Part shown: positions 1-46,579 of the stretch, piece by piece | Numbering within the stretch: position 1 is the first letter of the stretch | How the letters are laid out: every line of letters begins with the position of its first letter | NCBI RefSeq assembly: GCF_054482595.1 | Contig: NZ_CM137008.1 | Length of the DNA stretch: 64,000 bases | Strand: one strand, 5' to 3' | Translations under genes and position numbers: made by a program | Notes under the pieces: model-generated | Databases searched by the model: none | What the model was told of the DNA's origin: nothing | The model's input: the letters and a program-made list of their open reading frames with translations, nothing else

Positions 1-27
1 AAAACCTCATCTTTTAATATCAGTTAA

Positions 28-297
28 TTATTCAGCTTCACCGAAGCGGTCGCGAAATAAGTCGGTGAGAGTCTGTATGGCCTCGTTTTCATCATCACCG
101 TCGCAGCGTATTTCCACCGTTTTTCCGCCTTTTATTCCGGCGCGCATAATATTCATCATGCTGGTGGCATTAATATCATTACCCTCATAGTGCAGCGTCA
201 CTTTACAGCTATATTTTTTGGCGGCTTTCGCCAGACAGGCCGCCGGACGTGCATGCAGGCCAGTACTGTTTCTGACCTCCACGGTTTTATTCAACAT
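28..297 (-). CDS. HPr-like PTS phosphocarrier protein (89 aa)
   Basis: ORF with the HPr phospho-His signature GLHARPA near residue 15; ATG at 297 preceded by GGGAGG; overlaps the stop of the upstream kinase gene by 11 nt, so co-transcribed. Confidence 0.8.
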   Translation of the reverse strand: MLNKTVEVRNSTGLHARPAACLAKAAKKYSCKVTLHYEGNDINATSMMNIMRAGIKGGKTVEIRCDGDDENEAIQTLTDLFRDRFGEAE

Positions 298-1795
298 AGT
301 GTTCCTCCCGATGATGTAATGGCATCACGCCTTCTTGTTGTAATTTCAACTGATACCAGCTTTTCCATTTGTGCTGATAACGCTGTAATTGATGGTATCT
401 CGCCCGATTCGGTAACAAACGTTGGGCTATAGCGACTGGCGGCGGTGGAATATCCGGTGCGGCGGTTAATAATGCTCCGACAGAAACCGCCTCGTTAAAT
501 GCAATTGCTTCAACCGGACGCTGTAAAATATCCGCCTTTAATTGCAGCCAAAGAGGATTATGGGTTGCCGGACCGATCACTTTTAACGCGCTGGTGCCAG
601 GCACGTTAAAACAGGCGAAGCAGTTGGCAAATTCCATGGTTAATCCCAGTGATACGCTGGCAATTAACATGTCGATACTTAACGTATCGCCAAGCCCATA
701 AAATAATCCACGGGTATGGCGATTTTTATAGGGCGAACCCGAACCGCGAAGATGTGGAATAAAGACGGGAATGTCATCGAGCAACCAATTCCCCGCCAGA
801 TAATCAGCATGTCCGCGAGTAAGTGATGCGGCGATCTCCTCATCGGTTAGCCGGAACGTGTTGCGCAGCCACTCCAGCGCGAAACCGCCCACGGGCAGCG
901 ACGCAAACAGGGTGAACTGGTTGGCAAGTGAGTAACAGCCGTTTGCCAGCTTGTCACGTTTAGCCTGTTCATCCAGCGTCGGTTGTGTATCCAGTTGCAG
1001 AATGCCTTCCGTGGTCCCCGTCGAGTTAAGGATATCGCCTGGCATCATCTGCAACGCTCGCGCACCCACCATATGGTCATGTCCGGCCAGCGTCACGCTG
1101 ACCGGTTGCGAGAACCCAAGCGTCTTGCAAAGTGACTCGCTGACCCATCCGGCGTGCTCGCCTGGCTGCACCAATGGCGCAAATGCCGTACAGGGAACGT
1201 GTAACAACGCCGCCGCTTTCGCTGACCATTCGCCTTTGCGCACGTCCAGACACAGCGTGCGGCTGGCTAAGGTGATATCCGTGCGCTGTTCGCCAGTCAG
1301 CCGCCAGAGCAGCACTTCCGGCGCATGTAGCCAGCGCAAGCTGCGGCGATTACGCAGCGGGTAATGTTCCAGCAACCAGCGCATTTTGAAGGCAGAGTAA
1401 TTACTGTGTAGTGGTAGACCGCAGATGTCATAAAGTGCCGCACTGTCTGCCTCGCTAAGCGTTGCCAGATACTCTTCACCGCGACGGTCATACCATGCCA
1501 GCATTGGCGTCAGGATCTCGCCATGCTCGTCAAGGAACACGCCTGATTCGCCAAAACTGGCAATGCTGATCCGTCTGACTGGCAGCGGCGAAGCGGCGTT
1601 CAGTTGCGCTATCGCCTGGCGGACCTCCTGCCAGAGGGCGTCGATATCGAAATCGACATCGCCCTGTGGGGAGATCTGCTTTGCCGTCACGAATTTATGC
1701 GCGCCCAACGTCGTTGCGTCCAGGCAGGAAAAGCAGGTGACTTTGCAATTGGTGGTGCCAATATCGATAACGATAGCTGCGCTGTTATCAGGCAT
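287..1795 (-). CDS. FGGY-family carbohydrate kinase (xylulokinase/ribulokinase-like, 502 aa)
   Basis: N-terminal IDIGTTNCK motif typical of FGGY kinases; length typical of the family; start overlaps the stop of the upstream IIC gene. Confidence 0.8.
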   Translation of the reverse strand: MPDNSAAIVIDIGTTNCKVTCFSCLDATTLGAHKFVTAKQISPQGDVDFDIDALWQEVRQAIAQLNAASPLPVRRISIASFGESGVFLDEHGEILTPMLAWYDRRGEEYLATLSEADSAALYDICGLPLHSNYSAFKMRWLLEHYPLRNRRSLRWLHAPEVLLWRLTGEQRTDITLASRTLCLDVRKGEWSAKAAALLHVPCTAFAPLVQPGEHAGWVSESLCKTLGFSQPVSVTLAGHDHMVGARALQMMPGDILNSTGTTEGILQLDTQPTLDEQAKRDKLANGCYSLANQFTLFASLPVGGFALEWLRNTFRLTDEEIAASLTRGHADYLAGNWLLDDIPVFIPHLRGSGSPYKNRHTRGLFYGLGDTLSIDMLIASVSLGLTMEFANCFACFNVPGTSALKVIGPATHNPLWLQLKADILQRPVEAIAFNEAVSVGALLTAAPDIPPPPVAIAQRLLPNRARYHQLQRYQHKWKSWYQLKLQQEGVMPLHHREEHYVE

Positions 1796-3146
1796 AAACC
1801 GTGCTCCGCGTCATTCGGAAAATGCCATACAGTACCAGGGCGATAACCGGCACCAGACCAATGGCGATGATATTGCCGTTGAAGATTTCCAGCAGCCAGA
1901 AGCGGAACGGGTTACCGCCATCAAGGAAACTGGAAACCTGGCCGCTGGAGCCTTCGGCAAATTTGAAGTTAACGTCTTTCGCCATGCCGGTAATAAACGG
2001 TGCGATTTTAGTCGCAATCCACAGGTCGGCAATAATCACCGGGATCGCCGCCAGAACGGTGCGGAAAATATTGCCACGGCTGGCTAAAGCAATCATCGAC
2101 GCCATTACCGCCAGGTTGGCAAGGTCGCCAAGTGGCAGGACTTCATTACCTGGGAGGACAAACGCGATAAAGACCGAGATTGGCGTTAGCAGCAGGGCGG
2201 TGGAGATAATCGCCGGGTTACCTACGGCAACGGCGATATCCAGTCCGATATAGAGATCGTCACGGTCAGGGTATTTGGCATTGAGATACTTTTTAATAGC
2301 TTCAGACAGCGGTAATAAACCTTCCATCAGGATGCGTACCATGCGTGGCAGGATGAACATCACACCGCCAATGCTGATGCCAAGCAGCAATACTTTTTTG
2401 AAATCGTATCCGGCAATTACGCCGAGCAGAATGCCCAGAATGGTGCCAACCATCATCGGTTCACCGAAGATGCCAAACTTTTTCTGTACGGTTTCCGGGT
2501 CGATATGAATACGATTGAGGCCAGGGATATGGTCGATGATTTTGTCGACCAGCAGACCGACCGGGAAGAACACCACCGAAGAGAGCGTCGGCAATGAGAT
2601 CCCTTCCAGGCCAAAGTATTTTTGTACCAGTGGCGCAGACCAATCGGCGAGTTTAAGTACTACCACCGCAGCAATCGCCGCCGCCAGCAAACCAAAAAAC
2701 AGGCTGCCGGTGCTGTAATAAACCAGCGTACCAGCAAGGGCAAAATGCCAGTAGTTCCACATATCTACGTCAACGGTGCGGGTTTTATTTAACGCCAGCA
2801 TCGCCACGTTAATCAGAATGGTCAGGGGAATAACAAACGGGGCAATTGGCGAACCCCATGTAATAGCGGAAAGCGGCGGCCAGCCTAAATCTACCACCGG
2901 TAAATTAATTCCGGTGCGTTCAACCATCGCCTGGGCCGCTGGCCCGACATTGCTGGTCAGAATATCGAAAATGGCATAAATACCGACAAAACCAATGCCG
3001 ACTGTTAATGACGAACGTAAGGCTTTAGCGGGTTTTACTTTAAAACAGAGAGCAAGAATAAATAACACCAACGGCAACATTACCGTCGGGCCAAATCCCA
3101 ATATATATTGCACAATATTATAGAGGGTATGCGCGATATCGTTCAT
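1788..3146 (-). CDS. PTS EIIC component, galactitol (Gat) family
   Basis: Polytopic membrane protein with GatC-like sequence (LGFGPTVMLP, GEPMMVG, NLFRT); chosen start is ATG at 3146 (MNDIAH) with AAGAGG 7 nt upstream; the ORF track begins 30 nt further upstream. Confidence 0.8.
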   Translation of the reverse strand: MNDIAHTLYNIVQYILGFGPTVMLPLVLFILALCFKVKPAKALRSSLTVGIGFVGIYAIFDILTSNVGPAAQAMVERTGINLPVVDLGWPPLSAITWGSPIAPFVIPLTILINVAMLALNKTRTVDVDMWNYWHFALAGTLVYYSTGSLFFGLLAAAIAAVVVLKLADWSAPLVQKYFGLEGISLPTLSSVVFFPVGLLVDKIIDHIPGLNRIHIDPETVQKKFGIFGEPMMVGTILGILLGVIAGYDFKKVLLLGISIGGVMFILPRMVRILMEGLLPLSEAIKKYLNAKYPDRDDLYIGLDIAVAVGNPAIISTALLLTPISVFIAFVLPGNEVLPLGDLANLAVMASMIALASRGNIFRTVLAAIPVIIADLWIATKIAPFITGMAKDVNFKFAEGSSGQVSSFLDGGNPFRFWLLEIFNGNIIAIGLVPVIALVLYGIFRMTRSTVYA

Positions 3147-3222
3147 AATAAACCTCTTTTTCAGGCGAGAGCGCACCTCGCGTTAGCGCCTGATGGAGTG
3201 GGTTGAAATTAATTATTATTAA

Positions 3223-3504
3223 TTACTTTTTAAGGATCGAAACAATTTGCGCCAGTACTTTCTCTTCGCCAATACCGGTAATAATAGGCAAGCCGTTAAC
3301 CACCGGGACGTCGAGTTCATAAGGCACTTTAGTCGTTGAGACTACCAGTGCTACGCCGTCAGTATTTCCAGGTAAAGAGGCAACGTTGGTTTGGGAATAA
3401 TTGACGTTAAGACCTTGCTCTTTGCAATATTCCATGACTTTTTCTGTTACCGCCGTGGATGTGGCAATACCCGTGGCGCAGACAAATAAAATGGTTTGAC
3501 TCAT
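3223..3504 (-). CDS. PTS EIIB component, galactitol-type (93 aa)
   Basis: Small protein with N-terminal active-site Cys context ILFVCATGIATS typical of GatB-like IIB domains; 4-nt overlap with the IIA gene stop. Confidence 0.75.
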   Translation of the reverse strand: MSQTILFVCATGIATSTAVTEKVMEYCKEQGLNVNYSQTNVASLPGNTDGVALVVSTTKVPYELDVPVVNGLPIITGIGEEKVLAQIVSILKK

Positions 3505-3974
3505 ATTTCACCTCGTTCTTTCATTTTGTTTAAGATTACTGTGTGTATTTCTGTTGTTTCCATCGTAAGCAGGGCTTGCATAAAGGGCGTATCCTGAATC
3601 ATTTCCATAATCCAGCCCAGGGCATTTAATTGTTTGTTACTTTCGCTTAAGGCGAGCAAAAAAATCACCCTGACAGGTACGGGGTCAGGATCGCCGCCCA
3701 TATCGGCAAACTCTACCGGTTCCGGCAGGATGCCGACGGCAATTGCATTGTGCCTGACATGTTTATGGTCCGTGTGTGGAATAGCGACGCACGGTGGTTC
3801 GGTAGGCAGCCCCGTTGGGTACGTCGCCTCACGTTTCAGTACGTGATCGGCAAAGTCAGGGACCACCAGCTCGGCGGCAACCAACGGTTGCGCTAACTGA
3901 CGGATGATCTGTTCAACGCTTAACCCTGCCGGAAGTCGTTGAATATAATTTTCCTGAAACTGTATGCCTTGCAT
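3501..3974 (-). CDS. PTS EIIA component (type-2, mannitol/fructose-like, 157 aa)
   Basis: Size and His-containing core (AIPHTDH) consistent with the EIIA-2 family; first gene after the regulator. Confidence 0.7.
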   Translation of the reverse strand: MQGIQFQENYIQRLPAGLSVEQIIRQLAQPLVAAELVVPDFADHVLKREATYPTGLPTEPPCVAIPHTDHKHVRHNAIAVGILPEPVEFADMGGDPDPVPVRVIFLLALSESNKQLNALGWIMEMIQDTPFMQALLTMETTEIHTVILNKMKERGEI

Positions 3975-3998
3975 TTTATTCCTCTTAAAAAAGTGTAC

Positions 3999-4745
3999 TT
4001 AACTCACTTCCCGCCGTTGCAGCACGGTGCCAAGATAATATTTATTTCCTTTTAACCAGACGTTGCCAAACTCAACGGGTAATCCTCGGGAGAAAAAGAC
4101 TAACTGCTCCAGATGCAAAACGGGTGCATCTTCACTGATATCTAAAAAATGACCGCGTTCATTACCAATTAATCGCGCGGCATAGCGACTTTCCGAGTAA
4201 CGAATTTTTCTTTGCGACAAACTTTCTATTGTTGGAAATAAATTGTGTTGATTAAAATCGATTTCCGCGATGCCGGGGCATAGCTCAATATTGATACGGT
4301 TCTCTATCAGCATCGCTTTTTCATCACCAATCGAACGTAAACGTTCAAGGTAAAGAATATCCTGACCGGGCGTTATTCTTAATTTCTCTGCTACATAACG
4401 ATTAGCCGGTTCAATCCGTGACGTAATAACTTCAGTGGTAAAATGTATTTTCTGGCTTTCCAGCGATTCCGCGAATGACAATAATCCTTCACCTAACGGA
4501 TAGGCCACGTTCTCTTTTTTGACAAATGTTCCCTTGCCCTGGACCTGAATCAACACGCCTTCTTTTACCAGTTGGGCGACCGCTTTTTTAACGGTTCCCC
4601 GACTGACTTCCAGCATATCCATAATCTGGTATTCCGAAGGGATGCGATCGTCTTCCACCAGATCTCCGGTATAAATACTTTCTCTTATCCACTCCACCAC
4701 TTGTTGATAGAGCGGTATTTGTGACGACTTACTTAATGATTTCAT
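3999..4745 (-). CDS. GntR/HutC-family transcriptional regulator
   Basis: N-terminal winged-HTH (IPSEYQIMDMLEVSRGTVKKAVAQLVKEG) plus C-terminal effector-binding region; start chosen at ATG 4745 (MKSLSK) with AGGTG upstream rather than the GTG at 4754. Confidence 0.75.
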   Translation of the reverse strand: MKSLSKSSQIPLYQQVVEWIRESIYTGDLVEDDRIPSEYQIMDMLEVSRGTVKKAVAQLVKEGVLIQVQGKGTFVKKENVAYPLGEGLLSFAESLESQKIHFTTEVITSRIEPANRYVAEKLRITPGQDILYLERLRSIGDEKAMLIENRINIELCPGIAEIDFNQHNLFPTIESLSQRKIRYSESRYAARLIGNERGHFLDISEDAPVLHLEQLVFFSRGLPVEFGNVWLKGNKYYLGTVLQRREVS

Positions 4746-4768
4746 GGCGCGCACCTGAACATTTACAG

Positions 4769-4792
4769 TTGTCTATGGACAATCATGGACAA
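4769..4792. promoter_or_regulatory. Candidate operator: palindrome TTGTCTATGGACAA overlapping two ATGGACAA direct repeats
   Basis: Seen directly 25-45 bp upstream of the GntR-family regulator start; GT-N-AC palindromes are the usual HutC/GntR operator form; function inferred. Confidence 0.35.
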
Positions 4793-4943
4793 CTTCAAGC
4801 GTATAGTAGGTGAACAGGCGAAAAAGAGGATCGAAGCGTCTCACATTTTGAGGGACCAAATCGTGATCAAAAAAATGTGATGGAAGTCGAAGTTTGGCAG
4901 GAATTTACTGCGCCGTGAGGAAATAACGGCGCGTTGGGAGGTG

Positions 4944-7747
<2,804 letters not shown>

Positions 7748-7751
<4 letters not shown>

Positions 7752-8692
7752 GCGTGCGCTCCTTCATGACGACGAATGCGCGGGTCCAGCGCGGCGTTGA
7801 GCAAATCGACAATCAAATTACAGACCACAAAAACCACCACCATCATCAGCGTAAAGCACTGGATCACCGGATAGTCACGGTTAAAAATCGCCGACACCGC
7901 ATAGCGCCCGACGCCCGGCCAGGCAAAGATGTTTTCGATAATCATCGTCCCGCCAATCAGTTCGCCGATGTGCATCCCCACGGCGGTGATCATCGGCAGC
8001 GAGGCATTGCGCAGGATGTGGCGACGTTCGGTCTGTTTGTCATTCAGGCCGCGTAGCCGCGCCCAGGTGACGTGACGCTGACCGGCTACGTCCAGCATAC
8101 TGGCGCGCAGCAGCCGCGCGTTAATCGCCAGCGACATAAAGGCAATGGAAACCGCAGGCAAAATGATGTGCTGCCAGCCGCCGTAACCCATCGCGGGTAG
8201 CCATTGCAGATACACCGAAAACGCCATCACCAGTAAAAACGCCAGCCAGAAGTTAGGCATCGACACGCCAAGAAACGCGATGAAACGTACGGCGAAATCC
8301 GGCAGACGGTCACGATGGCGCGCCGCCCAGATACCGAGCGGTACGGAAGTGAGCAGAATTAATACCAGCGCCGCACCCGCCAGTTCCAGCGTAGCAGGCA
8401 GGAAGTTCAGCATATCGTCCAGCACCGGGCGCTGCGTGGCAAATGAGATGCCGAAATCAAGATGCAGCGCCTTCCACAACCAGGTGCCGTACTGCACATA
8501 CAGCGGCTGATCCAGTCCGAGCATGGTGCGGGTAGAGGCCAGCATCTCTGGCGTCGGCGGCAGGTTAGACAGACGCAAATAATCGAGCGCCGGGTCGCCG
8601 GTACCGAGGCGCAGCATCAGAAAAATGATCACCGAGGCGGCGAGCACCATGGGGATCAGCAGCAGAAAGCGGCGTAATACGTAACGCAACAT
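7748..8692 (-). CDS. nikB: Nickel ABC transporter permease NikB
   Basis: Polytopic permease; overlapping start/stop with nikC and nikA. Confidence 0.95.
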
Positions 8693-10965: not shown

Positions 10966-12195
10966 TCAGGGCCAACGTTTAATGATGATGGATGTATTAA
11001 TGCCGCCAAAGGCAAAGTTGTTACTCTGCAAAAACTCACAATCAACCTTGCGGGCTTCATGCATGATGTAATCCAGCGCGCCACAATTCGGGTCTGGTTT
11101 ATTCAGGTTTAGCGTAGGCGCAAACCAACCTTCGCGCATCATTTGCAGACTCATCCAGGCTTCGAGCGCGCCACAGGCACCAAGCGTATGACCAAAATAA
11201 CTTTTCAGCGAGGAGAGCGGCACATTATCACCGTAAATGGTTGCTGTCGCCAGACTTTCTGCCATATCACCGCGATCGGTCGCCGTACCATGCGCTGAAA
11301 TATAGCCGATATCTTGTGCGCTTAACCCGGCGATTTTCAGCGATTGCTCCATACAATACTGCATGGTTTCGCGCTGCGGCTGGGTAATATGTGCCGCGTC
11401 GCAGTTAGTCGCAAAGCCGACGATTTCACCGTAAATGGTCGCGCCGCGCGCTTTGGCGTGCTCCAGTTCTTCGAGAATGAGCGTACCTGCGCCTTCACCA
11501 ATCACCAGCCCGTCGCGGTTTTCATCGAACGGTGAAGGTGTGGTTTTCGGCGCATCATTGTGCTGGCTGGTGGCGAAAAGCGTATCAAATACCGCTGCTT
11601 CTGAAGGACATAACTCTTCGGCACCACCAGCAACCATCACCGTTTGATAACCGTGGCGAATGGCTTCCCACGCATAACCGATTGCCTGGCTGCCGGAAGT
11701 ACAGGCGCTGGAGGTTGGGATCACCCGCCCGCGCAGGCCGAAAAAGAGGCCAGTATTAACGGCGGTGGTGTGCGGCATCATCTGCACATAGGTGGTGCCA
11801 GTGATGTTATTGGTGTGCTTTTCCGTCAGCATGGTGGCGAACTCGCTTACCGGGCCGGTACTGCCGGTCGATGAACCGTACGCAATGCCCGTTTCGCCGC
11901 TGGTTAATATCGGATCGCCAATCAACCCTGCCTGCTCTAACGCCAGCTCGCTGGCACGGGTCGACATTTGCGACACGCGGCCCATCGCACGGATACGCTT
12001 GCGGGTGTAGTGCTCCGGTAGCGTGAAATCATCAACAGGCGCGCCAAGCAGGGTGTGCAGCCCGTCGTAGACCTGCCACTCCGGCATTTTGCGCACCGCA
12101 TTTTCATACGCCAGTAAGCGTGCAGAAACGTCCTGCCAGTTTTCACCAAAGGCAGTCACGCCACCCATTCCTGTAATCACTACGCGACGTGTCAT
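10966..12195 (-). CDS. apeR: Beta-ketoacyl-ACP synthase (APE cluster KS)
   Basis: 409-aa KAS I/II-like protein with active-site Cys context (PTSSACTSGS) and the His pair; the ape letter is assigned by position in the 18-gene order as I recall it. Confidence 0.85.
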   Translation of the reverse strand: MTRRVVITGMGGVTAFGENWQDVSARLLAYENAVRKMPEWQVYDGLHTLLGAPVDDFTLPEHYTRKRIRAMGRVSQMSTRASELALEQAGLIGDPILTSGETGIAYGSSTGSTGPVSEFATMLTEKHTNNITGTTYVQMMPHTTAVNTGLFFGLRGRVIPTSSACTSGSQAIGYAWEAIRHGYQTVMVAGGAEELCPSEAAVFDTLFATSQHNDAPKTTPSPFDENRDGLVIGEGAGTLILEELEHAKARGATIYGEIVGFATNCDAAHITQPQRETMQYCMEQSLKIAGLSAQDIGYISAHGTATDRGDMAESLATATIYGDNVPLSSLKSYFGHTLGACGALEAWMSLQMMREGWFAPTLNLNKPDPNCGALDYIMHEARKVDCEFLQSNNFAFGGINTSIIIKRWP

Positions 12196-12923
12196 AACAT
12201 CCCTCCGTTGATGGAAATAACCTGGCGGGTGACGTAACCCGCAATATCAGACATTAAATAACTGGCAAGCCCGGCAACTTCTTCCGCCTGGCCCATACGT
12301 TTCATGGGGATCATCGACATTGCCTCTTTCAGAGCGCTCTCTTCCATTTCGATCATCCCGGTATCAATAAGCCCTGGCGCGATGCAATTGACGGTGATTT
12401 TGCGCTTTGCGAGTTCGATAGCCAGCGCTTTTGTTGCGCCGATAATTCCGGCTTTGGCAGCGCTGTAATTCACCTGGCCGCGATTGCCCATTACGCCGGA
12501 AACCGAGGACAGCGTGATGATGCGCCCACCCTGGCGCGCGCCGATCATTGGCATAATGCACGGCTGAATGACGTTGTAGAAACTGTCGAGATTGGTGTGG
12601 ATCACCGCATCCCAGTCGTCATCGCTTAAAGCCGGAAAAGCGGCATCGCGGGCGATCCCGGCGTTACTGACCACGCCGTACCAGGCACCGTGTTGCGCGA
12701 TCTCATGCTCCAGCACTTCCCGACACTGTTCGCGGTTTGCGACGTCGAAACTGAGCAAACGCCCGTTACCCCCGTTGGCGACAATGGCATTCAGCGTTTC
12801 CTGAGCGCCTGTGGCGTCACGGTGATAGTGAACGCCAATGTTAAAGCCGTCTGCCGCCAGTTGGCAGGCGATGGCGCGACCAATGCCTTTGCTGGCACCA
12901 GTAACCAGAACTGAACGACTCAT
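12192..12923 (-). CDS. apeQ: 3-oxoacyl-ACP reductase (SDR family, FabG-like)
   Basis: Rossmann motif TGASKGIGRA and SDR catalytic YSAAK; 4-nt overlap with the neighbouring gene. Confidence 0.85.
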   Translation of the reverse strand: MSRSVLVTGASKGIGRAIACQLAADGFNIGVHYHRDATGAQETLNAIVANGGNGRLLSFDVANREQCREVLEHEIAQHGAWYGVVSNAGIARDAAFPALSDDDWDAVIHTNLDSFYNVIQPCIMPMIGARQGGRIITLSSVSGVMGNRGQVNYSAAKAGIIGATKALAIELAKRKITVNCIAPGLIDTGMIEMEESALKEAMSMIPMKRMGQAEEVAGLASYLMSDIAGYVTRQVISINGGML

Positions 12924-13387
12924 CAGGACGCTCCTTGTTGAAACAGGGTGGTAAGTTCTTCCGCGGTCGGCTGGAAGGTGTTAATGCGGCCCGTCGCCTC
13001 GCCGTCGTTGATGCTGCACTCAAAACTGCCGAAGCGATCGTCCTGCATCAGCAGTTTGACGGTAATGGTCAGCGTCTGGCCTGCGGGCAGAATGCCAGCG
13101 GCGCAAAGCAATTCACGCGCGCCCAGTATCATCCCTAACTCAATACTGTTTTTGCCCTGCTGGTGGCGATGCCAGCCAGACCAGACGCCGACGGTTTGCG
13201 CCATCAGTTCAAGGGCAAACCAGCCAGGGAGATTGCCGTCCGGGTCGAGAAACGGTGCCAGTACGCCACTGGGCGAAACCGTCACGCGGCACACCGCGCT
13301 GTCATCGCTGACGCTCACCACGTCTTCCAGCAGTAACATGGGCGCGTCGTGGGGCAGATAAGCGCCGGGGGATAAATAGTGGCTCAC
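12923..13387 (-). CDS. apeP: Hotdog-fold 3-hydroxyacyl-ACP dehydratase
   Basis: 154-aa hotdog-fold protein; partners with the second dehydratase (apeI) in APE clusters. Confidence 0.75.
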   Translation of the reverse strand: MSHYLSPGAYLPHDAPMLLLEDVVSVSDDSAVCRVTVSPSGVLAPFLDPDGNLPGWFALELMAQTVGVWSGWHRHQQGKNSIELGMILGARELLCAAGILPAGQTLTITVKLLMQDDRFGSFECSINDGEATGRINTFQPTAEELTTLFQQGAS

Positions 13388-14562
13388 GAAACCCTCCCGA
13401 GCAGAATGCTGGCGTTATTGCCGCCAAAGGCGAAGGAATTGGACAGGATCACCGGACGTGCCAGCGGCTGCGGTTTTTCGATAATGCCGCAGGGTGGCAG
13501 CGTGGGATCGCGTGGCGACAGGCTGAAATCTTGGGCGGGCAGCGGTAAATCACGCTGTAAGATCAACATACTGATTGCTGCTTCGGTAATGCCCGCCGCG
13601 CCCAGCGTGTGGCCGGTCAAATGTTTGGTGGAGCTGCACGGTACGCGTTCGCCAAACAGGGCGTTAACCACCATCGATTCAATCTGGTCGTTGAGTTGCG
13701 TGGCGGTGCCGTGCAGGTTGATATAGCCGACGTCATCTGGCGTAAGCTGCGCATCGGTCAGTGCCTGATTAATGGCGCGGATCGCCCCTTCGCCCTGCGG
13801 ATGCGGGGCCGAAATATGGTAAGCGTCACTCGATTCACCAACGCCCAGCAATGCGATGGGCTGCGGTTCGCGGGTTAATAACATCAGCCCCGCGCCTTCG
13901 CCAATGGTGATACCTGCGCGGTCACGACCGAACGGCTGACATAAAGTTGGCGAGAGCGATTCGAGGCTGTGAAAACCGTTAATCGGCATCCGGCTCAGGG
14001 TGTCTGCGCCACCCACAATGGCGGCATCGACCAGCCCCGTCTCGATAAGCCTGCGCCCGCTGATCATCGCTCTGGCGCTGGAGGAGCAGGCGGTTGAAAG
14101 GGTATAGGCCGGGCCGTCGAGCGCCAGCCAGTGGCTGAGAAAACGCGACGGATCGCCAAGTTCCTGTTGTGCGTAGTGCCATGTGGTGCTCGGCAGCCCG
14201 TGGGTGCGCAGGTTAACGTGCGTGTCGCCTTCATGCAGGCCGGAGGTGCTGGTGCCAAGTACAATCGCGATGCGCTCGCGACCATATTTCGCTATAGCGT
14301 CATCAACCTGCGGCTGGAGCTGCGCCAGCGCCGCCAGCAGGATCTGATTGTTGCGCGAGCGATGCGCAGCGAATTTTTCCGGGATAAGCGGAAGCTCGCC
14401 ATCCACGCCAGCCAGGACCGCCTGCGGATGCCCCTGCAACCAGCCTGCGCGTGGGCGCATTCCGGGGGCGACACCGCGAGCCAGGTTGGCTGCGATTTCG
14501 TCAAGATTATTTCCCAGGGCGTTGATCATGCCGACGGCGGAAATATAAATCATATCAGTCAC
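13384..14562 (-). CDS. apeO: Beta-ketoacyl-ACP synthase (APE cluster KS)
   Basis: 392-aa KS-family protein with conserved Cys (LSTACSSSARA) and C-terminal SNSFAFGGNNA. Confidence 0.85.
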   Translation of the reverse strand: MTDMIYISAVGMINALGNNLDEIAANLARGVAPGMRPRAGWLQGHPQAVLAGVDGELPLIPEKFAAHRSRNNQILLAALAQLQPQVDDAIAKYGRERIAIVLGTSTSGLHEGDTHVNLRTHGLPSTTWHYAQQELGDPSRFLSHWLALDGPAYTLSTACSSSARAMISGRRLIETGLVDAAIVGGADTLSRMPINGFHSLESLSPTLCQPFGRDRAGITIGEGAGLMLLTREPQPIALLGVGESSDAYHISAPHPQGEGAIRAINQALTDAQLTPDDVGYINLHGTATQLNDQIESMVVNALFGERVPCSSTKHLTGHTLGAAGITEAAISMLILQRDLPLPAQDFSLSPRDPTLPPCGIIEKPQPLARPVILSNSFAFGGNNASILLGRVS

Positions 14563-26373: not shown

Positions 26374-27423
26374 TTAACCCGGTAACCGACTTTTCGGTCT
26401 GCCCGGCCCCAGTAAAATCGCCAGTTTGCTACCGCCTTTGGTGGTTTCCATCCAGATTTTACACACGCTGGTTAATGGCACCGAAAGTAGCATCCCTACC
26501 GGGCCGAGCAGCCATCCCCAAATTAACAATGAAAGAAATACCACCATGGTGGACATCCCCAGGCGATGGCCCATCATCCGTGGTTCTAAAATATTGCCGA
26601 TAACCATATGGACAACTAAAAACAATGCGCCGACCAGAATACATTCGTAAACACCATTAAACAGCAGCACCTGAATCATTGGCGGTACGGCGGAAATTAC
26701 CGCGCCGATATTGGGCACGTAGTTGAGCAAAAACGCCAGTACTGCCCACATCAGCGCAAACTGCACCCCCATCAGCTCCAGCCCCAGCCAGACGATGACA
26801 CCTGTCCATAAACTGAGTAGCGTCTTTAACGCCAGATAATGCGAAACGCCTTTAAGTGCGCGGTGTAATCCTGCGATGTGAATCTGTGGGTTATTCAGCG
26901 CAAAACGCATTTTGTAAGGGACGTGGCGCACTTCAAATAGCATGAAAACAACGGTCATCACCAGCAAAAGCACGCTCGCCATTGCCCCGGAAAGCCCGGT
27001 CATTAGCGCTGTGGTGAAGGTAACCACTTTTTCCGAGTCCATCCGCTGCAGCATTCGCTCCGGCGACATATGCAAATTAAGAAAAGGCAACATCTCCTGC
27101 AATTTAAAAAGTTTGCGCGTCAGCTCCTTATTAAACTTCGGCAGCATAGAGATAAATTCGTTAAACGATGCCGCCAGTACGCCGACCAGCGCGGTTAGAG
27201 TGATCAGCATCACCACCACCACAATCGTAATGGCAACGGGGCGTTTTACTCCCCGTCGAATAAACCAGGTAACGAGCGGGTTGAGGACGATGGCAAAAAA
27301 CAGCGCCAGTAACAGCTGCACAATGATATCTGCCGCTGCGTGAATGCCCGCGAGGATCACTACCAGCGAGGCCAGCTTGAGCAGAATGTGCATGCCCGTT
27401 TTATCGGGTTGAGGGGTTTCCAT
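26374..27423 (-). CDS. yhhT: AI-2E family inner-membrane transporter YhhT
   Basis: 349-aa polytopic protein starting METPQPDK; the ORF track begins 81 nt further upstream. Confidence 0.9.
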   Translation of the reverse strand: METPQPDKTGMHILLKLASLVVILAGIHAAADIIVQLLLALFFAIVLNPLVTWFIRRGVKRPVAITIVVVVMLITLTALVGVLAASFNEFISMLPKFNKELTRKLFKLQEMLPFLNLHMSPERMLQRMDSEKVVTFTTALMTGLSGAMASVLLLVMTVVFMLFEVRHVPYKMRFALNNPQIHIAGLHRALKGVSHYLALKTLLSLWTGVIVWLGLELMGVQFALMWAVLAFLLNYVPNIGAVISAVPPMIQVLLFNGVYECILVGALFLVVHMVIGNILEPRMMGHRLGMSTMVVFLSLLIWGWLLGPVGMLLSVPLTSVCKIWMETTKGGSKLAILLGPGRPKSRLPG

Positions 27424-45100: not shown

Positions 45101-45864
45101 GTCAGCCATTATTATCTGTTAACGGCCTGATGATGCGCTTCGGCGGCCTGCTGGCGGTGAACAACGTCAATCTCGAACTGTACCCGCAGGAGATCGTCTC
45201 GTTAATCGGCCCTAACGGTGCCGGAAAAACGACGGTCTTCAACTGCCTGACCGGTTTCTACAAACCCACCGGCGGCACTATTTTACTGCGCGATCAGCAT
45301 CTGGAGGGTTTGCCGGGGCAGCAAATCGCCCGCATGGGCGTGGTGCGTACCTTCCAGCATGTGCGTCTGTTCCGTGAAATGACGGTAATTGAAAACCTGC
45401 TGGTGGCGCAGCATCAGCAACTGAAAACCGGGCTGTTCTCAGGCCTGTTGAAAACGCCGTCTTTCCGTCGCGCCCAAAGTGAAGCGCTCGACCGCGCCGC
45501 CACCTGGCTTGAGCGCATTGGTTTGCTGGAACACGCCAACCGCCAGGCGAGCAACCTGGCCTACGGTGACCAGCGCCGTCTGGAGATCGCCCGCTGCATG
45601 GTGACGCAGCCGGAGATTTTAATGCTCGACGAACCTGCGGCAGGTCTTAACCCGAAAGAAACGAAAGAGCTGGATGAGCTGATTGCCGAACTGCGCAATC
45701 ATCACAACACCACTATCTTGTTGATTGAACACGATATGAAGCTGGTGATGGGAATTTCGGACCGAATTTACGTGGTCAATCAGGGGACGCCGCTGGCAAA
45801 CGGTACGCCGGAGCAAATCCGTAATAACCCGGACGTGATCCGTGCCTATTTAGGTGAGGCATAA
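45097..45864 (+). CDS. livG: Branched-chain amino acid ABC ATPase LivG
   Basis: Walker [10 protein letters not shown]; overlap with livM. Confidence 0.95.
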
Positions 45865-45865
45865 G

Positions 45866-46579
45866 ATGGAAAAAGTCATGTTGTCCTTTGACAAAGTCAG
45901 CGCCCACTACGGCAAAATCCAGGCGCTGCATGAGGTGAGCCTGCATATCAATCAGGGCGAGATTGTCACCCTTATTGGCGCGAACGGGGCGGGGAAAACC
46001 ACCTTGCTCGGCACGTTATGCGGCGACCCGCGCGCCACCAGTGGGCGAATTGTGTTTGATGATAAAGACATTACCGGCTGGCAGACGGCGAAAATCATGC
46101 GCGAAGCGGTGGCGATTGTCCCGGAAGGGCGTCGCGTCTTCTCGCGGATGACGGTAGAAGAGAACCTGGCGATGGGTGGTTTCTTTGCCGAACGTGACCA
46201 GTTTCAGGAGCGCATAAAGTGGGTGTATGAACTATTTCCACGTCTGCATGAGCGTCGTGTTCAGCGGGCGGGAACGATGTCCGGTGGTGAACAGCAGATG
46301 CTGGCGATTGGTCGTGCGCTGATGAGCAACCCGCGTTTGTTGTTGCTTGATGAGCCATCGCTCGGTCTTGCGCCGATTATCATCCAGCAAATTTTCGACA
46401 CCATCGAGCAGCTGCGCGAGCAGGGGATGACTATCTTCCTCGTCGAGCAGAACGCCAACCAGGCGCTAAAGCTGGCGGATCGCGGCTACGTGCTGGAAAA
46501 CGGCCATGTGGTGCTCTCCGATACTGGTGATGCACTACTGGCGAACGAAGCGGTGAGAAGTGCGTATTTAGGCGGGTAA
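45866..46579 (+). CDS. livF: Branched-chain amino acid ABC ATPase LivF
   Basis: Walker A GANGAGKTTLL; start taken as ATG 45866 (MEKVML) immediately after the livG stop; the ORF track begins 12 nt further upstream. Confidence 0.95.
   Translation: MEKVMLSFDKVSAHYGKIQALHEVSLHINQGEIVTLIGANGAGKTTLLGTLCGDPRATSGRIVFDDKDITGWQTAKIMREAVAIVPEGRRVFSRMTVEENLAMGGFFAERDQFQERIKWVYELFPRLHERRVQRAGTMSGGEQQMLAIGRALMSNPRLLLLDEPSLGLAPIIIQQIFDTIEQLREQGMTIFLVEQNANQALKLADRGYVLENGHVVLSDTGDALLANEAVRSAYLGG

Follow-up and report, generated by a model that had tools for sequence, protein, structure and literature searches.

A predicted phased direct-repeat operator in front of a HutC-type regulator gene on an accessory sugar-PTS island of Escherichia coli

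The 25-nt segment at positions 4768-4792 (minus strand) of the window, by which we mean the whole 64,000-nt stretch of contig NZ_CM137008.1 analyzed here, is very likely the operator of the adjacent HutC-type regulator, which is predicted to be an effector-released repressor of its own gene and of the seven-gene operon that begins with it. We read the segment as an operator because the repeat that it contains precedes the orthologous gene cluster even in lineages as remote as Enterococcus. The first-pass annotation of this DNA had proposed an autoregulatory operator, and the conservation of the predicted site before the regulator lends strong support to that idea.

The plus strand at 4769-4782 is TTGTCTATGGACAA (TTGTC / TATG / GACAA), with perfectly complementary arms, and ATGGACAA occurs twice at a spacing of 10 bp, at 4775-4782 and 4785-4792 (4775-4792 overall). 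The 5-4-5 dyad and the overlapping direct repeats 10 bp apart had thus been described correctly in both sequence and coordinates, as had their position just upstream of a GntR/HutC regulator gene, the motif ending 23 nt from the regulator ATG (4745, minus strand). Read on the gene's strand, the segment consists of two direct 10-bp units, TTGTCCATGA (4792-4783) and TTGTCCATAG (4782-4773), followed by the inverted half-site ACAAC (4772-4768). We therefore predict a functional unit of 25 nt, 4768-4792, which refines the 4769-4792 motif noted originally. The 8/8 identity of the two ATGGACAA copies is specific to Escherichia and C. amalonaticus, and the first unit in most relatives is TTGTACATGA. 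Tandem 10-bp direct repeats are found as two units in E. coli and as two to five in relatives. An inverted repeat with a GT/AC core is present as well (TTGTCCATAGACAA on the gene's strand), and in several relatives the dyad is a perfect 14-bp palindrome, TTGTCTATAGACAA. The GT-N-AC rule invoked in the annotation agrees with the published survey of the family (PMC4494728), but the distance from GT to AC in the operator is 6 nt (GT-CCATAG-AC) and not the 4 nt typical of HutC sites.

The presumed operator-binding protein, encoded at 3999-4745 (minus strand, RefSeq start), is a GntR/HutC-family regulator of 248 aa. Its GntR winged helix-turn-helix domain (PF00392, residues 15-78) exceeded its cut-off of 27 at 58.8 bits, and its UTRA domain (PF07702, residues 101-239) exceeded 23.8 at 97.9 bits, a domain layout that is that of the HutC subfamily of the GntR family. 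None of the NCBIfam equivalogs scored above its own cut-off for the regulator. Downstream on the same strand lie the genes for a PTS EIIA (PTS_EIIA_2, 3501-3974, 24 bp past the regulator stop), a PTS EIIB (3223-3504), a PTS EIIC of the galactitol (Gat) family (1788-3146), an FGGY-family sugar kinase (287-1795) and an HPr-like phosphocarrier (28-297); the seventh gene, for a class II ketose-bisphosphate aldolase, lies just past the left end of the window. Two repeats unrelated to the operator motif, TAATTAATAATAATTAAT, which is AT-rich, and the GC-rich inverted repeat CAGGCG...CGCCTG, lie in the EIIB-EIIC spacer (3147-3222) and may form an internal mRNA-processing or stability element.

The seven genes are an insertion between hicB and nikR, and the 198-bp spacer from the nikR stop (4944) to the regulator ATG is part of the island. 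Positions 1-5400 are 100% identical to E. coli strain XH990, and of 5426 complete E. coli genomes 1637 have the island, those of O157:H7, O145 and ATCC 25922 among them. A further accessory region lies upstream of the nik operon, at 10966-14562 and beyond, where acpT is joined by a cluster of genes of the fatty-acid/polyketide type (for beta-ketoacyl-ACP synthases, FabG2 and a dehydratase). The relative position of shared sequence suggests that the E. whittamii locus (L004) lacks this region. Our search of the literature found no published function, substrate or regulation for the island, no paper on the regulator or the motif (binding, footprint and expression work included) and no match for 3HFI or OI-139, and four exact motif strings were absent from full texts and from the supplementary site tables of PMC4494728. 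Identity of the island with the published ExPEC vpe carbohydrate locus was considered and rejected, vpe being a different locus next to deoK.

How much of the motif might arise by chance was estimated at two scales. Across the whole window the dyad pattern, with at most one mismatch, matched three times against 2.0 expected, ATGGACAA occurred four times against 2.1 expected, and 8-bp direct repeats with a spacing of exactly 10 occurred four times against 0.74 expected, so that neither the dyad nor the repeat is remarkable at the 64-kb scale. Shuffling the 198-bp intergenic region 5000 times gave an 8-bp direct repeat at a spacing of 8-30 in 286 cases (5.7%), and such a repeat together with an overlapping dyad with 5-bp arms in 58 (1.2%). 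At about 1% by shuffling, the sequence by itself is suggestive and not decisive, and the case consequently rests on conservation at orthologous loci. In a tandem-unit scan of the window the operator scored best, at 27.1 bits. The runner-up, a 19.2-bit match at 26606-26625, lies inside a 376-aa ORF and was dismissed as an extra site at chance level. Also dismissed was a second perfect TTGTC-N4-GACAA dyad, TTGTCCTTTGACAA at 45881-45894, which occurs at chance frequency with no tandem units beside it; it sits just inside the start of an ORF at 45854-46579. The island's other 8-bp repeat spaced by 10 bp (3208) has no relation to the operator; it is low-complexity TAATTAAT that follows the EIIB stop. 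Tandem-unit and dyad scans thus gave no further credible operator copy in the window.

The regulator was aligned with 22 relatives of 52-90% identity, and the alignment was used to fetch 53 syntenic loci, one genome per species, from Enterobacterales, Gilliamella, Enterococcus, Selenomonas, Anaeromonas and a Coriobacteriaceae MAG; the 53rd locus is cut off inside the regulator gene. The regulator, the Gat-family PTS, the FGGY kinase and the class II aldolase occur together in all 52 full-length loci, which identifies the clusters as orthologous, and no regulator other than the HutC-type protein was seen in the cluster in these loci. Most of the 53 loci carry two to five phased TTGTACATAG-like units before the regulator. 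The annotation had named absence of the motif from orthologous loci as grounds for abandoning the idea; instead, a degenerate 24-nt pattern was found once per locus, always in the same position, in 19 of the 20 group-1 loci, the twentieth, Izhakiella, having ACGA instead of ACAA.

Among 16 Enterobacterales whose regulators are 84-100% identical, the block TTGTACATGA-TTGTCYATAG-ACAAC is invariant or nearly so, and the 30 nt between the proximal TGTGA box and the -10 hexamer, both described below, are scrambled. Since the stretch from the operator to the ATG is conserved throughout, conservation within the Enterobacterales fails to single out the repeat. Five further E. coli spacer alleles (94-95% identical overall) have the same operator; they differ only in the nikR-proximal spacer and show no change between the TGTGA box and the ATG. 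The variable part of the spacer (4860-4943, compared with L057-L061) is unusually so, most E. coli being 90-95% identical to the window allele over 214 bp, and O157:H7 strain TR01 has a different junction sequence beside nikR.

Where the regulators are only 48-59% identical, in Gilliamella, Enterococcus, Selenomonas, Anaeromonas and the Coriobacteriaceae MAG, the units persist and the remaining region is unalignable; among the Firmicutes, most loci show a recognizable phased array. There are three or four units in Gilliamella (for example TTGTCCATAG-TTGTACATAG-TTGTCTATGG-ATGTATATTT), three to five in Anaeromonas and several enterococci, and two followed by ACAAG in Selenomonas. In the E. raffinosus/avium/pallens group (L040 and L042-L046, at about 7900-7990) the array spans some 80 bp; strong TTGTACA units recur at 20-bp intervals, and one adjacent pair is 10 bp apart. 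Five of the six loci of this group fell below the tandem threshold given below, as did the Sporolactobacillus locus, with scattered weak units only; the Coriobacteriaceae MAG has one strong unit in a weak array of 18.4 bits. In 21 representative upstream regions, TGTACAT was present in 16, compared with a maximum of 8 in shuffles, and TGTnnA elements were spaced by 10, 20 and 30 bp in 17, 15 and 7 cases against about 0.15 expected. The loci are phylogenetically related, and counts of loci therefore overstate the number of independent events. Gilliamella and several Firmicutes have the direct repeats and lack the inverted arm. On one point the annotation needs correction: the core conserved across phyla is the direct repeat with its 10-bp phase and not the palindrome.

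The specificity of the motif was assessed with a matrix of the 10-nt unit trained only on DNA upstream of the regulator. Tandem pairs were scored on both strands over about 16 kb per locus, about 0.85 Mb in all, with a threshold of 22 bits. Scores of at least 22 bits were found only before the regulator and, in species with a split operon, at a class of sites upstream of EIIA, so that within this sample the motif is confined to promoters of the cluster. In 15 species the cluster is split into EIIA-EIIB-EIIC-kinase-dehydrogenase and regulator-aldolase-HPr, and all 15 have a second site about 100-130 bp upstream of EIIA. The second site (L022-L035 and L052, about 2900-2955; 2912-2936 in L026) follows a good CRP site and a -35/-10-like pair, and in 14 of the 15 species its sequence is TTGAACATAG-TTGTACATAG-ACAAC or a near match; the site of Pantoea sp. 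BAV 3049 (L022) reads TTGTACATAG-TCGTACATGG-ACAAC. The sites upstream of EIIA were not part of the training set, and since the matrix had never seen them they constitute an independent test. In the Pantoea locus the site stands upstream of EIIA only, with none before the regulator, which indicates that autoregulation is not universal.

A motif upstream of EIIA had been suggested as a check on the first reading, and the outcome depends on the organism: the motif is there in each of the 15 split-operon species and is missing in E. coli, where the gap is only 24 bp and holds neither a site nor a separate operator or promoter before EIIA. With EIIA starting 24 bp after the regulator stop, the gene is evidently co-transcribed with the regulator. 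The split-operon cluster also includes a gene for a zinc-dependent alcohol/polyol dehydrogenase (6777-7811 in L026) for which the E. coli island has no counterpart. The extra gene suggests use of a hexitol by the split-operon relatives and possibly direct uptake of a ketose by the E. coli island, with phosphorylation by the PTS followed by the FGGY kinase and the bisphosphate aldolase.

A consensus sigma-70 scan of the minus strand of 3900-5000 found no -35/-10 pair, and the E. coli promoter was therefore placed by alignment only. The putative -10 hexamer, TACTAT at 4803-4808 (minus strand; TAYYAT in most relatives), lies 10 nt upstream of the operator, and its T, A and T columns are nearly invariant in the Enterobacterales alignment, which would put the transcription start at about 4794-4796. 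The absence of a consensus -35/-10 pair fits an activator-dependent promoter. In three Firmicute loci, those of Anaeromonas, Selenomonas and E. canintestini, a promoter of the sigma-A type (10/12) with a near-consensus -10 ends 4-5 nt before the array. Because the array begins 4-5 or 10 nt after the -10, it would in every lineage cover the transcription start and the early leader, which is the classical position of a repressor.

Two boxes upstream of the -10 resemble CRP sites, for which the consensus is TGTGA-N6-TCACA. The proximal one, TGTGAGACGCTTCGAT at 4830-4845 (minus strand), has an AAAnTGTGA half that is invariant in 16 Enterobacterales and a weak right half, and its center is about -41.5 from the presumed start, where the CRP site of a class II promoter would be expected. 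The distal one (4877-4892, unstranded) reads TGTGA-N6-TCACA in most relatives and is the better site, with one half degenerate in the window allele (TTCGA-N6-TCACA on the gene's strand). The two centers are 47 bp apart with a conserved TGATC between them. Judged by the known consensus, both boxes are probably CRP sites. The enterococcal loci have a cre-like TGATACCGATTACA in the equivalent place, just upstream of the array in the E. raffinosus group, and the cre-like and CRP-like sites together suggest that catabolite control is also conserved in the cluster. Downstream of the operator, a ribosome-binding site, AGGTG (4752-4756, minus strand), stands 6 nt before the ATG. The leader at 4746-4767 (TGTTCAGGTGCGCRCCATG) is nearly invariant in 16 Enterobacterales genera, beyond what a ribosome-binding site needs.

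The DNA-reading residues of the regulator were compared with those of NagR, its closest characterized relative of known structure. Arg38 and Arg48 of NagR recognize a pair of adjacent guanines in the GTGG half-site of the complex with DNA, and the wing residue Gly69 enters the minor groove (PMC4333415). An ungapped alignment of the DNA-binding domain with NagR (2WV0) matches Arg49 and Gly70 of the island regulator to Arg48 and Gly69, and neither residue varies among 23 orthologues that range from E. coli to Firmicutes. The recognition-helix segment VSRGTVKK and the wing GKGT show little or no variation over this range. The equivalent of NagR Arg38 is Tyr39 in the island regulator and Asn in most orthologues. 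A single guanine-reading Arg matches the single G in each TTGT half-site, which is consistent with, and no proof of, recognition of the TTGT core by the regulator. For the effector side of the protein, PDB entry 3HFI (a "putative regulator" of 170 residues) is identical at 166 of 170 positions to residues 79-248 of the regulator (window 3999-4511), a match close enough that it is probably the allele of another E. coli strain, and it already offers an effector-domain structure for docking or soaking of ligands.

Taken together, these features suggest the following mechanism. The operator would present three TTGT-type half-sites, two of them direct and one helical turn apart and the third inverted, forming TTGT-N6-ACAA with the second. 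Beginning about 10 nt after the presumed -10, it would extend across the transcription start and 25-30 nt into the leader. Without inducer the regulator would occupy the operator, probably as two cooperating dimers or as one dimer with an extra domain contact, and would block initiation or promoter escape at the single promoter that would drive regulator-EIIA-EIIB-EIIC-kinase-HPr-aldolase. With that one promoter blocked, the regulator would repress itself together with the pathway. A phosphorylated intermediate of the pathway would bind the UTRA domain and release the regulator from the DNA, and the CRP-like sites upstream suggest that cAMP-CRP may be needed for full expression.

A more general form of the operator can be imagined, and we put it forward tentatively, as a possibility that we would not wager on. 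The ancestral site may have been a phased head-to-tail array of up to five copies of TTGTACATAG, or of about 80 bp as in the E. raffinosus group, and not a palindrome, with regulator dimers coating the start region cooperatively, side by side or head to tail, and with the two-direct-one-inverted arrangement of E. coli as a minimal derivative. If this were true, the orthologous group would offer a natural series in which one GntR-family domain accommodates direct and inverted half-sites.

Other explanations of the conserved segment compete with an operator for the HutC-type regulator. It might be a genuine binding site of another transcription factor, global or PTS-linked, and the CRP-like and cre-like sites are a reminder that other factors act in the same regions. 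That reading retains a small probability, since the motif and the regulator travel together across phyla: the motif accompanies the cluster through Proteobacteria, Firmicutes and an actinobacterial MAG, and the cluster's only regulator is of the HutC type. The TTGT/ACAA cores, moreover, fit the GT..AC rule of the GntR family, and the regulator's DNA-reading residues are invariant in parallel with the motif core. To our knowledge, the motif is also unlike the consensus sequences of CRP, Cra, Mlc/NagC and CcpA. Slightly less probable still is that RNA polymerase keeps the segment as part of the core promoter or initiation region, that is, as a discriminator, an initially transcribed sequence or an alternative -35/-10. 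The segment does abut the -10 in every lineage examined, and TGTACA and TATAGT within the array make a weak promoter-like match in one locus. Promoter elements, however, do not come in two to five phased copies or in arrays of up to 80 bp, the motif is unchanged whether the promoter is of the sigma-70 or the sigma-A type and despite wide differences in promoter quality, and it is restricted to this gene cluster.

An element of the RNA, namely a hairpin in the 5' leader acting on translation or stability of the regulator mRNA, deserves slimmer credence again. If the start has been placed correctly the segment is transcribed, and the E. coli leader could form a GUUGUC...GACAAC hairpin of -12.6 kcal/mol, but the fold has a z of only -1.1 and 24 of 200 shuffles fold as well. 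No Rfam match was found in 3000-5400. The absence of the inverted arm in Gilliamella and several Firmicutes argues in the same direction, as do the conservation of sequence and 10-bp phase in place of pairing and the presence of the operator at a second promoter with an unrelated leader. As for a chance repeat without function, the dyad and the repeat taken singly are indeed unremarkable at the scale of the window; their combination, however, arose in just 58 of 5000 intergenic shuffles, and its conservation across phyla and recurrence at a second promoter already contradict chance, to which we give next to no weight. The operator of the adjacent HutC-type regulator is thus the reading that we carry forward.

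The predicted operator provides an experimental handle on a widespread accessory sugar pathway. A reporter on 4746-4943 should be derepressed by the true substrate and would thereby identify what the PTS/kinase/aldolase pathway consumes, and the motif permits genome-wide searches for further targets of the regulator. The site would also add a documented case of a HutC regulator with phased direct repeats to what is otherwise conventional repressor-operator biology.

Compared with the generic HutC operator, the island site shows both likeness and difference. The HutC consensus is NyGTMTAKACNy, with 4 nt between GT and AC in most sites (Suvorova et al. 2015, PMC4494728). The island site shares the GT..AC dyad with an A/T-rich center (GT-C-TA-TA-G-AC), whereas its GT and AC are separated by 6 nt in place of 4. 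Many palindromic sites of the GntR family have a weaker extra half-site 7-12 nt from the dyad center (PMC4494728); the extra box of the island site, in contrast, is as strongly conserved as the dyad, and several lineages retain the direct repeats only, unlike the generic dyad.

The closest characterized relatives of solved structure are NagR (YvoA) of B. subtilis and DasR of Streptomyces (E = 1.5e-22), which share the domain layout of the island regulator and conserve the equivalents of Arg48 and Gly69. Both are repressors released by sugar phosphates, and their target, dre, is a dyad built on GT..AC cores that in nature is an imperfect palindrome. The dre site is a single 16-bp dyad whose GG half-site is read by Arg38 and Arg48, whereas the island half-site has one G and the position of Arg38 is taken by Tyr or Asn. 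The island dyad is, in addition, 2 bp wider than dre (GT-N6-AC) and is accompanied by at least one direct copy in phase.

In architecture the island site is closest to the operator of FarR/MngR of E. coli K-12, likewise a HutC-subfamily repressor of a PTS sugar operon. FarR, with direct repeats of TGTATTAWTT, and NagQ are the exceptions within HutC that bind direct repeats, and the FarR/MngR operator consists of tandem 10-bp direct repeats that begin with TGTA (PMC4494728). The K-12 mngR-mngA spacer shows TGTATT repeats, and this operator, like the island site, stands in the promoter region of the regulator's own gene. The two systems differ in the unit (TGTATTAWTT for FarR and TTGTACATAG for the island), in the inverted half-site that ends the E. 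coli island site and that the FarR/MngR operator lacks, and in gene order, mngR being divergent from mngA and the island regulator being the first gene of its operon. The regulators themselves share 29% identity. Against NCBIfam PRK09764, which we take to be the MngR model, the island regulator scores 100 bits with a cut-off of 281, and on these sequence comparisons it is not an MngR orthologue. A HutC-family repressor with an operator overlapping the promoter is known biology, and what is somewhat unusual in the island site is the arrangement of two direct half-sites and one inverted.
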